Positions 5,396-7,544 of a DNA stretch of 8,050 nucleotides are shown in pieces. Position numbers and translations under genes: made by a program. Position 1 is the stretch's first letter. Every line of letters begins with the position of its first letter. The stretch is from a virus. Its lineage: Duplodnaviria; Heunggongvirae; Uroviricota; Caudoviricetes. The stretch covers positions 1 through 8,050 of IMG/VR virus record IMGVR_UViG_2778261269_000007; one strand, 5' to 3'. Under the pieces are notes generated by a model. The model was not told the DNA's origin, searched no databases, and saw nothing but the letters and a program-made list of their open reading frames with translations.

Positions 5396-5722
5396 TCAAA
5401 TAAGTGGTTTGCTGCCTAATTTCATTTTCTGGCGACCAACACAAGTCACACCCATTTCACTGCATGGCTTGCTGTACCATGTGCGCTGATTCTTGCGTTC
5501 AATACGTTGCAGGTTGCTTTCAATCTGTTCGTGGTATTCAGCCAGCACCGTAAGGTCTATCGGATTAAGTGCGCTGTCTACTCGTGATTTCGGTTTGCGA
5601 TTCAGCGAGAGAATAGGGCGGTTAACTGGTTTTGCGCTTACCCCAACCAACAGGGGATTTGCTGCTTTCCATTGAGCCTGTTTCTCTGCGCGACGTTCGC
5701 GGCGGCGTGTTTGTGCATCCAT
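5396..5722 (-). CDS. N: Antitermination protein N (108 aa)
   Basis: The minus-strand ORF MDAQTRRRERRAEKQAQWKAANPLLVGVSAKPVNRPILSLNRKPKSR... is near-identical to lambda N as recalled, including the arginine-rich boxB-binding motif at the N-terminus. AGGAG lies upstream of the ATG. Confidence 0.9.
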   Translation of the reverse strand: MDAQTRRRERRAEKQAQWKAANPLLVGVSAKPVNRPILSLNRKPKSRVDSALNPIDLTVLAEYHEQIESNLQRIERKNQRTWYSKPCSEMGVTCVGRQKMKLGSKPLI

Positions 5723-5920
5723 CTGGATTCTCCTGTCAGTTAGCTTTGGTGATTGGATGGCCGGCGCTGAACCCCGGCTTACTGGTTAGAGCGCCCGCAC
5801 TACCAGTGACGCTGTCTTGAGGCGCAGATTGGTTACTGCTTGCCATGAGCGCTGTTTATACATTGGTCGAGCATCAGCCTGCTCATTCATCCAATCCCAA
5901 AGCCTTCTGCTTTGAATGCT

Positions 5921-5951
5921 GCCCTTCTTCAGGGCTTAATTTTTAAGAGCC
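5921..5951 (-). promoter_or_regulatory. nutL site (boxA variant plus boxB hairpin)
   Basis: The minus strand reads GGCTCTTAAAAATTAAGCCCTGAAGAAGGGC. boxB GCCCTGAAGAAGGGC (plus 5921-5935) is identical to lambda nutL boxB. boxA is GGCTCTTA (plus 5944-5951), against CGCTCTTA in lambda. Confidence 0.8.
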
Positions 5952-5983
5952 TCACCTTCATGGTGGTTAGTACGTCCTGCTGA

Positions 5984-6019
5984 TGGCTAAATAGTACGAT
6001 TTGTACTTTATTGAGTCAA
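5984..6019 (-). promoter_or_regulatory. PL early leftward promoter
   Basis: The minus strand reads TTGACT (-35, plus 6014-6019), a 17-nt spacer, TACTAT (-10, plus 5991-5996), then the start at the A of ATCAGCAGGACG (about 5984), which is the lambda PL transcript start sequence. Confidence 0.7.
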
Positions 6020-6032
6020 TACAAAATGTTCT
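5993..6032. promoter_or_regulatory. Putative OL operators (palindromic repressor sites overlapping PL)
   Basis: A perfect palindrome AGTAC-N5-GTACT at 5993-6007 overlaps the -10. A related site AATAC-N5-GTTCT at 6018-6032 overlaps the -35. The pattern differs from lambda OL (TATCACCGC...), consistent with a different immunity. Confidence 0.45.
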
Positions 6033-6083
6033 AAATATAATTAGTTTTTTATAACGCTTTGTATTTAATGGGTTTATATTTTG

Positions 6084-6114
6084 GAAAAAGAAAACCCGAC
6101 GCTAAGGTCGGGTT
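6084..6114 (-). terminator. Rho-independent terminator downstream of cI
   Basis: The minus strand reads AACCCGAC-CTTAGC-GTCGGGTT followed by TTCTTTTT. Arms at 6093-6100 and 6107-6114, about 30 nt after the cI stop. Confidence 0.5.
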
Positions 6115-6144
6115 ATTGTTGTGTGTTTTAGAGTTGTGAGGCTG

Positions 6145-6798
6145 TTAACTAAATGTCTCTTCAGGCCACTGGCTGGCGATAACTTTCCCTACTACGGAAC
6201 AGCTATCATTGCATGGAATCATTGGATATTGCGGGTTTAGTGGCTGTAGGAACACCTGACCGCTATCCCTGATCAGTTTCTTGAAGGTAAACTCGTCACC
6301 ACCAAGTCTGGCTATGCAGAAATCACCTGGCTCAACAGCCTGCTCAGGGTCAACGAGAATTAACATCCCGTCAGGAAAGCTTGGCTTGGATCCTGTTGGA
6401 GCGGTCATGGAATTACCTTCAACTTCAAGCCAGAACGCACAATCACTGGCTTTTTTGGTTGTGCTTACCCATCTCTCCGCATCACCTTTGGTAAAGGTTC
6501 TAAGCTCAGGCGAGAACATCCCGGCCTGAACATGAGAAAAAACAGGGTACTCATATTGTTTTTTAACGGGGGCAGATGAGTATTCGCCAACAGGTGAAAA
6601 TGTACCGTCGTGGTTGAATGAGACGTTATCAATACCAAGGTATTTAAACACCACACCAATCTCGTCAAGAGATGGATGACGAGATCCGCGCAACCAGTGA
6701 CCAATTCCACCCTGCGTCATACCAAGCTCTTCAGCTAACTTCTCTTGAGTTATGCCGAGCTCTTTCATTCTGGATCTAGCCAGTTCATACCATTTCAT
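6145..6798 (-). CDS. cI: CI-type prophage repressor (HTH N-terminal domain plus S24 LexA-like C-terminal domain)
   Basis: The C-terminal 130 or so residues ([29 protein letters not shown]...[28 protein letters not shown]...[28 protein letters not shown]...) are near-identical to lambda cI as recalled, including the GNSM serine and the catalytic lysine region. The N-terminal HTH ([23 protein letters not shown]) is unlike lambda. The track ORF extends to a TTG at 6846, but an operator-like palindrome at 6814-6828 and an AAGGG Shine-Dalgarno favour ATG 6796-6798 (or 6802-6804). Confidence 0.85.
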
Positions 6799-6813
6799 TT
6801 TCATACCCTTATT

Positions 6814-6896
6814 ATTACGCTCTGTACTAAAACCATCCATGCACAAGATGTATTTTTTGTTTGCATTCTAAAAGTACATATCGTATTATTGTTTCA
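6814..6896. promoter_or_regulatory. OR operator region with PR (plus strand) and the presumed PRM (minus strand)
   Basis: PR: TTGCAT (6861-6866), 17-nt spacer, TATTAT (6884-6889), start near 6896, followed by GGAGGG and the cro ATG. Operator-like palindromes AGTAC-N5-GTATT (6872-6886, over the PR spacer and -10) and ATTAC-N5-GTACT (6814-6828) belong to the same family as the OL sites. The PRM hexamers could not be placed with confidence. Confidence 0.55.
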
Positions 6897-6915
6897 TGGT
6901 TACTATGGAGGGCAT

Positions 6916-7131
6916 ATGAGCAACCTACGAAAATATCGAGAGTCACTGAATATCTCTCAAACAACACTTGCTAAGGCAGTTGGATGCACACAGGGAGCTA
7001 TCGGACATTGGGAATCTGGTCGTCGCTTCCCAGACCTTAAAACATGCCGTGCTCTTGTTGAGTGCCTAAACAAGTTAGGCGCAAAAGTCAGTCTTGATGA
7101 CGTGTTCCCGCCGGAACACAAAGCCGCTTAA
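6916..7131 (+). CDS. cro: Cro-like repressor (71 aa, XRE-family HTH)
   Basis: First plus-strand gene after PR, with GGAGGG 4 nt before the ATG. The HTH QTTLAKAVGCTQGAIGHWESG resembles the HTH of the adjacent cI N-terminus. Not lambda Cro by sequence. The track ORF 6745..7131 is 5'-extended through the operator region. Confidence 0.8.
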   Translation: MSNLRKYRESLNISQTTLAKAVGCTQGAIGHWESGRRFPDLKTCRALVECLNKLGAKVSLDDVFPPEHKAA

Positions 7132-7139
7132 GACATTCC

Positions 7140-7171
7140 CGCTCTTACACATCCCAGCCCTGAAAAAGGGC
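7140..7171 (+). promoter_or_regulatory. nutR site (boxA CGCTCTTA plus boxB GCCCTGAAAAAGGGC)
   Basis: The sequence CGCTCTTACACATCCCAGCCCTGAAAAAGGGC matches lambda nutR as recalled. The following segment up to the cII start also matches the lambda tR1 / cII leader. Confidence 0.8.
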
Positions 7172-7227: not shown

Positions 7228-7273
7228 GTTATCTAAGGAAATACTTACATATGGTTCGTGCAAACAAACGCAA
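7228..7273 (-). promoter_or_regulatory. PRE (cII-activated repressor-establishment promoter) with TTGC-N6-TTGC cII-binding repeats
   Basis: The minus strand across the cII start reads TTGCGTTTGTTTGCACGAACCATATGTAAGTATTTCC, the lambda PRE arrangement as recalled. The direct repeats TTGC...TTGC lie at plus 7260-7273. Confidence 0.6.
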
Positions 7274-7544
7274 CGAGGCTCTACGAATCGAGAGTGCGTT
7301 GCTTAACAAAATCGCAATGCTTGGAACTGAGAAGACAGCGGAAGCTGTGGGCGTTGATAAGTCGCAGATCAGCAGGTGGAAGAGGGACTGGATTCCAAAG
7401 TTCTCAATGCTGCTTGCTGTTCTTGAATGGGGTGTCGTTGACGACGACATGGCTCGATTGGCACGACAAGTTGCTTCGATTCTCACCAATAAAAAACGCC
7501 CGGCGGCAACCGAGCGTTCTGAACAAATCCAGATGGAATTCTGA
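7251..7544 (+). CDS. cII: Transcriptional activator CII (97 aa)
   Basis: From ATG 7251 the product MVRANKRNEALRIESALLNKIAMLGTEKTAEAVGVDKSQISRWKRDW... is essentially identical to lambda CII as recalled. The track ORF 7191..7544 is 5'-extended. Confidence 0.9.
   Translation: MVRANKRNEALRIESALLNKIAMLGTEKTAEAVGVDKSQISRWKRDWIPKFSMLLAVLEWGVVDDDMARLARQVASILTNKKRPAATERSEQIQMEF

Follow-up and report, generated by a model that had tools for sequence, protein, structure and literature searches.

The divergent cI-cro region and its promoters

The stretch of DNA analyzed here (the window; 8,050 nucleotides, from a lambdoid prophage) contains the divergent regulatory genes cI and cro, with dyad sites lying between them and a second set of such sites at the leftward early promoter. 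The genes, promoters, and terminator of this region are as follows.

6145..6804, minus strand: cI repressor, with an HTH_3 N-terminal domain (recognition helix TQGGIGHW) and a Peptidase_S24 C-terminal domain
6916..7131, plus strand: cro, 71 aa, of the HTH_3 type (recognition helix TQGAIGHW)
5991..6019, minus strand: PL, with −35 TTGACT (6019-6014), a 17-nt spacer, and −10 TACTAT (5996-5991), found by consensus scan
6860..6889, plus strand: PR, with −35 TTGCAT (6861-6866) and −10 TATTAT (6884-6889), found by consensus scan and sequence reading
6805..6840, minus strand: putative weak PRM, with −10 TAATAA at about 6817-6812 and −35 at about 6839-6834, from sequence reading
6093..6114: bidirectional terminator hairpin, lying between OL3 (a site of the left set) and the end of cI

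PL reads leftward into nutL and N, and PR reads rightward into cro; for PR, the consensus scan itself returned TTTGCA at 6860, followed by a spacer of 18 nt. The same scan did not pick up PRM, of which a counterpart is annotated as a "putative maintenance promoter for cI" in both AP005153 and AP000422. The hairpin at 6093..6114, whose counterpart is annotated in AP000422, would mark the end of the PRM transcript. Another hairpin of terminator-like appearance, at 5921-5935, is actually the lambda nutL boxB and no terminator.

The cI reading frame has two in-frame ATGs, at 6804 and 6798. Its Peptidase_S24 domain (Pfam PF00717; E=9e-29) is of the LexA-like self-cleaving type, and the hinge and C-terminal domain together are about 98% identical to those of lambda cI (C-terminal match to structures 3bdn and 8gmu).

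A family of six dyads at the early promoters

A preliminary description of this DNA had pointed to a recurrent 15-bp pattern, A(G/A/T)TAC-N5-GT(A/T)(C/T)T, as a candidate operator family, and the recurrence is real: the pattern is found at four places in the window (AGTACGATTTGTACT at 5993-6007, AATACAAAATGTTCT at 6018-6032, ATTACGCTCTGTACT at 6814-6828, and AGTACATATCGTATT at 6873-6887) and nowhere else within it. When the 8,050 bases were scanned with ADTAC-N5-GTWYT, 6 strand-matches were obtained versus 0.12 expected by chance, a count reached by none of 200 shuffles. The first three of these sites had been placed correctly, whereas the fourth had been put one base off, at 6872-6886; the "perfect palindrome" claimed for 5993-6007 applies to its two arms of five bases only, as symmetry is broken at the centre (GATTT) and in the flanking T/T. 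A search for the palindrome beyond the window, in a 46-kb record of a related phage, recovered the same four sites and one stray match, at 12133, which is at chance level (0.73 expected).

The four sites listed at first all belong to the family, but the family has six members, since two weaker ones had been overlooked: OL3, with core ATAACGCTTTGTATT at 6051-6065, and OR2, with core TGCACAAGATGTATT at 6840-6854. The full operator set consists of three plus three sites flanking cI.

5992..6008: OL1, 17-mer TAGTACGATTTGTACTT, core 5993-6007; best match to the family, overlaps the PL −10
6017..6033: OL2, 17-mer CAATACAAAATGTTCTA, core 6018-6032; overlaps the PL −35 by 2-3 bp
6050..6066: OL3, 17-mer TATAACGCTTTGTATTT, core 6051-6065; degenerate
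6813..6829: OR3, 17-mer TATTACGCTCTGTACTA, core 6814-6828; adjoins the cI start and overlaps the −10 and spacer of the putative PRM
6839..6855: OR2, 17-mer ATGCACAAGATGTATTT, core 6840-6854; degenerate, abuts the −35 of the putative PRM
6872..6888: OR1, 17-mer AAGTACATATCGTATTA, core 6873-6887; between the PR −35 and −10, overlaps the −10

The consensus of the six is a 17-bp dyad, WADTACR-N3-YGTAHTW, in which A-4 and C-3 are invariant in 12 of 12 half-sites. Measured from centre to centre, OL1 and OL2 are 25 bp apart, OL2 and OL3 33 bp, OR2 and OR3 26 bp, and OR1 and OR2 33 bp; the distance from OL1 to OR1 is 880 bp. That the sites lie over PL and PR, as had also been proposed, was confirmed by an independent promoter consensus scan: site 1 on each side falls between the −35 and −10 elements of PL or PR and overlaps the −10. 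Between OR2 and the PR −35 there is no overlap but a gap of 5 bp.

The pattern ADTAC-N5-GTWYT was derived from the same sites that it detects, and a noncircular cross-validation was therefore carried out with half-site matrices. The matrix trained on OR ranked OL1, OL3, and OL2 at 1, 5, and 7 of 8034 positions, and the matrix trained on OL ranked OR1, OR3, and OR2 at 2, 5, and 7 of the same 8034 window positions; in both cases, the positions outranking the held-out operators were mostly the training sites themselves. Two strays of the matrices are at chance level, one centred at 2339, inside a coding ORF, and the other at 6041, in the A/T-rich spacer between OL2 and OL3. A candidate fourth left site downstream of PL, at 5969-5983 (AGTACGTCCTGCTGA), was rejected: its right arm is mismatched, and its AGTAC is not kept in related loci, where homology breaks near 5972. 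A generic inverted-repeat finder returned only OL1 and OL2, taken as one long imperfect pair, without separating the single operators.

Conservation of the sites and their likely readers

Conservation among relatives is selective for the arms of the dyads. Across 59 OL and 27 OR haplotypes, variable columns numbered 2 of 60 in the arms, 8 of 30 in the centres, and 37 of 85 outside the operators (Fisher p=1e-8 for arm-selective conservation; p=0.002 is also reported for the haplotype column comparison). The IMG/VR loci (n=80) all carry a 100% identical cI and are thus informative on flank and operator variation only. The OL region of an Stx1-converting phage contains a mosaic breakpoint: its spacers and the N gene next to it are different, yet all three sites are kept.

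The sites can also be followed into phages of four other genera, namely, Salmonella, Erwinia, Klebsiella, and Vibrio. Four phages whose N-terminal domains are 49-56% identical have TAC-N5-GTA dyads at the same positions; in their cI-cro spacers, two such dyads are accompanied by a weaker middle site, and 17 of the 23 spacer columns that are invariant among the distant relatives are TAC/GTA cores.

Position, conservation, distant relatives, and the co-variation of recognition helices described below all argue for the interpretation, already put forward in the preliminary description, that the dyads are operators for cI and Cro. On this sequence evidence, the sites are very probably the tripartite OL1-3 and OR1-3 of a lambdoid prophage with VT2-Sakai-type immunity.

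Whether all six dyads act as operators deserves consideration, since OL3 and OR2 each have 3 mismatches to AGTAC-N5-GTACT and low cross-validated ranks, OR2 is clear of the PR −35, and only two OL sites are reported for 933W. These two dyads could accordingly be nonfunctional look-alikes, leaving four sites with two operators per promoter as at 933W OL, but we regard this as improbable: both were placed in the top 7 of 8034 by matrices never trained on them, and A-4 and C-3 are kept in every one of their half-sites. Moreover, six diverged cI-cro spacers all share the TAC...TG of OR2, the Stx1-converting phage retains OL3 next to a spacer that is not conserved, and the centre of OR2, about 43 bp upstream from the cI start, is at the position expected of a PRM activator.

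The second question is who reads the dyads. Overall identity between Cro and the cI N-terminal domain is only 35%, and there are lambdoid phages in which the two regulators have different folds and site preferences, which would fit a division of labour in which cI alone or Cro alone reads the dyads and the other regulator recognizes different or offset sequences. Such an arrangement appears highly improbable here, as both proteins are of the HTH_3 type and the 117-bp cI-cro spacer yielded no further repeated motif. The helix strings TQGGIGHW (cI) and TQGAIGHW (Cro), previously noted as similar, are indeed present and match in 7 of 8 residues, and the starts of the cI/Cro helices co-vary phage by phage in five independent phages (TQG/TQG, TKG/TRG, TKG/TKG, TQG/SQG, and SQS/SQS). 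The residue that opens the cI helix, Gln28 in MKW numbering (the Q of TQGG), is Q, K, or R in relatives, and His34 is invariant.

That the matches reflect only chance or the A+T-rich composition of promoters, and no protein-binding sites, has a negligible probability: it could draw on the post hoc definition of the pattern and on a relaxed search of the whole window, which with 3 mismatches allowed stays at an uninformative chance level (22 matches versus 18.5 expected), but it is effectively refuted by the shuffles, by a cross-validation that does not depend on the pattern definition, by the arm-specific conservation, and by the alignment of distant spacers with cores at the same positions in four other genera.

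If all six dyads are operators shared by cI and Cro, two kinds of dimer would recognize each 17-bp dyad, one formed by the N-terminal HTH_3 domain of cI and the other by the paralogous Cro. Bound at OL1 and OL2, cI would cover the −10 and −35 of PL, and bound at OR1 it would cover the −10 and spacer of PR, so that early transcription both leftward (N) and rightward (cro-cII-O) would be shut off. At OR2, cI probably activates the weak PRM, while OR3 may serve both for PRM autoregulation and as the entry point at which Cro shuts off cI. Because the C-terminal domain is almost identical to that of lambda cI, dimerization, pairwise cooperativity, RecA-stimulated self-cleavage, and possibly OL-OR looping over the 880 bp would be expected to proceed as in lambda. 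Immunity specificity would reside in the cI N-terminal domain, cro, and the six sites.

Relation to known immunity systems

The six operators are of the VT2-Sakai type, which was annotated and published more than 20 years ago, and they are not new. Each of the window 17-mers differs from the "putative operators" of VT2-Sakai (Sp5; AP000422) by 1-2 mismatches, mostly at the centre or edge, with OL1 having one central mismatch and OL2 two; the six sites also correspond, again with 1-2 mismatches each, to putative operators of the Stx1-converting phage (AP005153), and OL3 and OR2 are both annotated as such in the two records. The AP000422 operator sequences are identical to those in Table S5 of Yin 2015 (PMC4587872), which lists the same operators citing Fattah 2000 (Genes Genet Syst 75:223), a study whose treatment of these operators is taken here as cited by Yin 2015 and PMC10742460. 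Carriers of these OL/OR putative operators include VT2-Sakai, the Stx1-converting phage, Stx2 phage II, Nil2, 2851, and the PA/PST1 phages (Makino 1999; Fattah 2000; Yin 2015, PMC4587872). In the classification of Fagerlund 2022 (PMC8951638), the repressor falls into CI "Clade I".

The proteins agree with this assignment. Compared with the AP005153 cI, the cI protein is 97% identical over 218 aa, with residues 1-45 and the HTH region identical; its N-terminal domain is 96% identical to that of the VT2-Sakai cI, and Cro is one residue apart from the VT2-Sakai Cro (VECL versus VACL). VT2-Sakai has the same order of sites and the same placement relative to PL, PR, and PRM, with spacings of 25 and 33 bp at OL and of 26 and 32 bp at OR, compared with 25/33 and 26/33 here. 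The surroundings differ: the flanks here are lambda-type (N, nutL, nutR, cII, and the cII site), whereas the Stx phages compared here carry an HK97/933W-type N. VT2-Sakai further has an insert of about 1.5 kb, with extra ORFs, between cI and OL, which is absent here, and its OL1-OR1 distance is about 2.3 kb rather than 880 bp. No stx context was seen here, and the prophage is most closely related to non-Stx prophages and P22-like phages.

A literature search returned no report of cognate-repressor binding, footprint, or reporter work on Sakai-type operators; the only EMSA found in it concerns lambda CI on VT2-Sakai sites, with micromolar affinities. The Koudelka-lab papers on 933W and BAA2326 and the preprint on the "bully phage" phi1720a-02 do not mention these sites, and the operator sequences of 933W and BAA2326 differ from them.

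The immunity type is widespread: among 5426 complete E. coli genomes, 187 contain the OL-cI-OR segment in full (80% or more of the query), and partial matches occur in 1420. In E. coli O157:H7, the VT2-Sakai immunity type controls induction of the Stx1 and Stx2 prophages of the Sakai type and, with it, the release of toxin. For the window, the outcome is a correct annotation, that of a lambda-like prophage in which lambda N/nut/cII flanks surround a Sakai-type immunity cassette; existing knowledge is unchanged by the finding.

More distantly related modules share the architecture with changes in detail. SPN9CC and epsilon34 (Salmonella), Midgardsormr38 (Erwinia), ST11-VIM1phi8.3 (Klebsiella), and H8 (Vibrio), whose N-terminal domains belong to the same family at 49-56% identity, resemble the present module in their core dyads, in a distance of 58-59 bp between the outer dyads (OR1-OR3), and in matched cI and Cro helices. 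They differ from it in the outer arm bases (TATAC or GATAC in SPN9CC and ATTAC in Vibrio H8, versus AGTAC or AATAC here) and in helix residues (TKGAVSHW, SQSAIAHW), and their C-terminal domains are not lambda-like, with SPN9CC a partial exception. These phages are presumably heteroimmune to the present prophage.

In relation to lambda, the preliminary description had recognized an arrangement that follows OL/OR with a different sequence, and this holds. As in lambda, three 17-bp dyads lie between divergent cI and cro and three lie at PL, with site 1 on the −10 of PL or PR, and the N/nut and cII/PRE elements of this prophage are lambda-type. The operator sequence itself is unrelated: the lambda operator consensus (of the TATCACCG-N-CGGTGATA type) has no match with up to 3 mismatches in 5900-6950, and its only match in the window, at 1462-1478, is at chance level. 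With no lambda-type operator at OL or OR, lambda immunity (imm-lambda) is ruled out. Identity to lambda cI is about 21% in the N-terminal domain, which lacks the N-terminal arm of the lambda protein. Cro here is of the HTH_3 type, all-helical, and akin to the N-terminal domain of cI, whereas lambda Cro has a different fold; rexAB, present in lambda, is absent.

The geometry of the sites also departs from that of lambda. Lambda operators are spaced 24 and 23 bp apart at OR and 24 and 20 bp apart at OL; the OR1-OR2 spacing here is 33 bp versus 24 bp in lambda, and OR2, unlike its lambda counterpart, is clear of the PR −35. Lambda-style cooperativity between OR1 and OR2 is assumed here by analogy. 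Given a spacing unlike that of lambda in combination with a lambda-like C-terminal domain, the cooperative pairs may differ, for instance, by involving OR2 and OR3, which we consider unlikely; if such pairing did occur, it would imply stronger PRM autorepression, low repressor levels, and a "hair-trigger" induction of the kind put forward for other Stx phages. OL-OR looping in this compact prophage would span only 0.88 kb. Mixed oligomers with lambda cI could form via the shared C-terminal domain, and these might underlie the reported cross-immunity between lambda and VT2-Sakai.

Early-control region and its flanks

The window is a lambdoid early-control region. Its promoters PL and PR were placed by a consensus promoter scan that was blind to the operator finding.

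Genes, promoters and other elements of the region
5396-5722, minus: N, lambda-type (Pfam N36)
5921-5935 and 5942-5950, minus: nutL, lambda-type, boxB GCCCTGAAGAAGGGC and boxA
6019-6014 and 5996-5991, minus: PL, -35 TTGACT and -10 TACTAT, 17-nt spacer
6093-6114: bidirectional hairpin terminator, directly after the cI stop (6145) and followed by OL3
6145-6804, minus: cI repressor (HTH_3, Peptidase_S24)
6860/6861 and 6884-6889, plus: PR, -35 and -10 TATTAT
6916-7131, plus: cro, 71 aa, divergent from cI (HTH_3)
7140-7147 and 7157-7171, plus: nutR, lambda-type, boxA CGCTCTTA and boxB GCCCTGAAAAAGGGC
7251-7544: cII, lambda-type
7577 (start): O-like gene

Since the nut sites are lambda-type, the flanks are lambda-like despite the Sakai-type immunity; judged by sequence, the window is mosaic, with lambda-type N, nut and cII flanking a Sakai-type immunity cassette. 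A scan hairpin at 5921-5935 that appeared terminator-like is actually the nutL boxB. At the start of cII, the minus strand carries lambda's cII-binding repeat TTGC-N6-TTGC (TTGCGTTTGTTTGC, 7260-7273), which implies a PRE of the lambda kind whose transcript would run back across cro into cI. There are two in-frame cI ATGs, at 6804 (MKMKW...) and 6798 (MKW...), the latter being the start annotated in VT2-Sakai; an AAGGG Shine-Dalgarno sequence fits the ATG at 6798. With the -10-like TAATAA at 6817-6812, a PRM transcript would begin near 6804 and the cI mRNA would be leaderless, as in lambda.

Six putative operator sites around cI

The preliminary description proposed that the 15-bp pattern ADTAC-N5-GTWYT recurs at four places as a candidate operator family. 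This recurrence was borne out at OL1, OL2, OR3 and OR1, with no further match in the 8,050 bases (0.12 expected; the observed count was reached in 0 of 200 shuffles). Three of the four positions were exact, and the one given as 6872-6886 is 6873-6887. The site described as a perfect palindrome, OL1, has perfect 5+5 arms (AGTAC/GTACT) around an asymmetric centre, GATTT. All four sites stand, and the family is larger than proposed: a search with mismatches allowed added OL3 (ATAACGCTTTGTATT) and OR2 (TGCACAAGATGTATT), making six.

Putative operator sites (15-bp cores)
5993-6007: OL1, centre 6000
6018-6032: OL2, centre 6025, 25 bp from OL1
6051-6065: OL3, centre 6058, 33 bp from OL2
6873-6887: OR1, centre 6880
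6840-6854: OR2, centre 6847, 33 bp from OR1
6814-6828: OR3, centre 6821, 26 bp from OR2

Because the pattern had been derived from the sites themselves, half-site weight matrices were cross-validated. A matrix built from the three OR sites alone placed OL1, OL3 and OL2 at ranks 1, 5 and 7 of 8034 positions, and one built from the three OL sites alone placed OR1, OR3 and OR2 at ranks 2, 5 and 7. The half-site consensus is W-A-D-T-A-C-R (n = 12 half-sites): A (-4) and C (-3) never vary, -2 is a purine throughout, and 11 of the 12 carry A at -7. This makes the site a 17-bp dyad, WADTACR-N3-YGTAHTW. The refuting outcome named in the preliminary description, a comparable density of the motif in unrelated DNA, did not appear: ON470605, the closest phage (complete record, 46 kb, some of it host DNA), has only these four matches and a single stray (0.73 expected).

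Conservation in close relatives follows the dyads. Eighty IMG/VR loci with identical cI and varied flanks gave 59 OL and 27 OR haplotypes, in which 2 of 60 operator-arm columns were variable, against 37 of 85 non-operator columns (Fisher p = 1e-8) and 8 of 30 columns in the central five bases (p = 0.002). In the Stx1-converting phage, OL has a different N gene as its neighbour and its distance from cI is greater by about 1.5 kb; it retains all three sites, and the OL2-OL3 spacer is rewritten. A candidate site at 5969-5983 lacked conservation and was ruled out. A lambda-operator-like palindrome (TATCCCCCTTGCTGATA) in an intergenic gap at 1462-1478, three mismatches away from the lambda consensus, is no better than chance (equalled in 14 of 200 shuffles) and probably meaningless.

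The promoter overlaps originally claimed were right: OL1 lies on the PL -10, OL2 on the PL -35 (sharing 2-3 bp), and OR1 between the PR -35 and -10, overlapping the -10. Together, these findings support the operator interpretation at the sequence level. Repressor at OL1/OL2 and OR1 would occlude the -10/-35 elements of PL and PR. OR2 adjoins a weak -35, and its distance upstream of the cI start is about 43 bp; lambda cI activates PRM from an equivalent position, and OR2-bound cI may do likewise. OR3, 10 bp from the cI start, would cover the predicted PRM -10 and spacer, allowing autorepression and Cro shut-off of cI.

Sakai-type immunity and a wider module family

The immunity cassette, common in E. 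coli prophages, is by its proteins of the VT2-Sakai type: cI shares 97% identity with that of the Stx1-converting phage (HTH region identical), its N-terminal domain is 96% identical to that of VT2-Sakai cI, and Cro has a single residue changed relative to VT2-Sakai Cro. The putative operator sites are already known. Annotations of VT2-Sakai (AP000422) and the Stx1-converting phage (AP005153) carry six 17-bp "putative operators" with PL, PR and PRM at equivalent positions; Yin et al. 2015 (PMC4587872, Table S5, PST1) list the same six sequences, credited to Fattah et al. 2000, with L/R labels swapped relative to gene order. The window's 17-mers have one or two mismatches each to their published counterparts; with few exceptions these lie at the outermost base or the three central ones. 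Fagerlund 2022 assigned the repressor to CI "Clade I". Two studies (PMC9803871, PMC10742460) took these sites as VT2-Sakai operators and measured only lambda CI binding (micromolar apparent Kd); the literature searched yielded neither footprints nor EMSAs of the cognate repressor on these sites.

By tblastn, the cI N-terminal domain is 49-56% identical in phages of Salmonella (SPN9CC, epsilon34), Erwinia (Midgardsormr38), Klebsiella (ST11-VIM1phi8.3) and Vibrio (H8). The four cI-cro spacers fetched (all but epsilon34) each hold two perfect TAC-N5-GTA dyads 58-59 bp apart, compared with 59 bp in this window and 58 bp in VT2-Sakai; in the six-spacer alignment, 17 of 23 invariant columns are the OR1/OR3 TAC/GTA cores and OR2 TAC..TG. 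These modules form a wider cI/Cro family across several Gammaproteobacteria with a common core and fixed OR1-OR3 distance. The similar HTH strings noted earlier, TQGGIGHW (cI) and TQGAIGHW (Cro), are present, and the recognition helices co-vary per phage (TQG/TQG, TKG/TRG, TKG/TKG, TQG/SQG, SQS/SQS), as would be expected of two proteins reading common sites, and all 11 cI and Cro proteins keep one His. The co-variation also suggests that outer arm bases and first recognition-helix residues set specificity. Both differ between members of the family, which would lend itself to studies of diverging immunity specificity.

Repressor proteins and comparison with lambda

cI looks like a domain chimera: its hinge and C-terminal domain (6145-6560) match lambda cI (PDB 3bdn, 8gmu) at about 98% identity, and its N-terminal domain is only about 21% identical to lambda's. 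Given this C-terminal identity, dimerisation, pairwise cooperativity, octamer looping and RecA-stimulated cleavage would be expected to be lambda-like. It is conceivable that mixed oligomers form with lambda cI, and this might bear on the lambda/VT2-Sakai cross-immunity attributed to Fattah 2000. The closest solved structure to Cro is the "lambda repressor-like protein" PDB 28tn (82 aa, E = 2e-16, residues 1-69 alignable), with P22 c2 N-terminal domains as distant matches; Cro is therefore an all-helical HTH_3 protein, without the lambda Cro fold.

The region differs from lambda in several respects. The operator sequence is unrelated, and the N-terminal arm of lambda cI is absent. This Cro, unlike lambda's, is paralogous to the N-terminal domain of cI (35% identity over 62 residues, E = 3e-13). 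The 33-bp OR1-OR2 spacing leaves OR2 clear of the PR -35. The immunity region is also compact, the 6040-6145 stretch containing neither rexAB nor VT2-Sakai's extra cI-OL ORFs, and only 880 bp separate OL1 from OR1.
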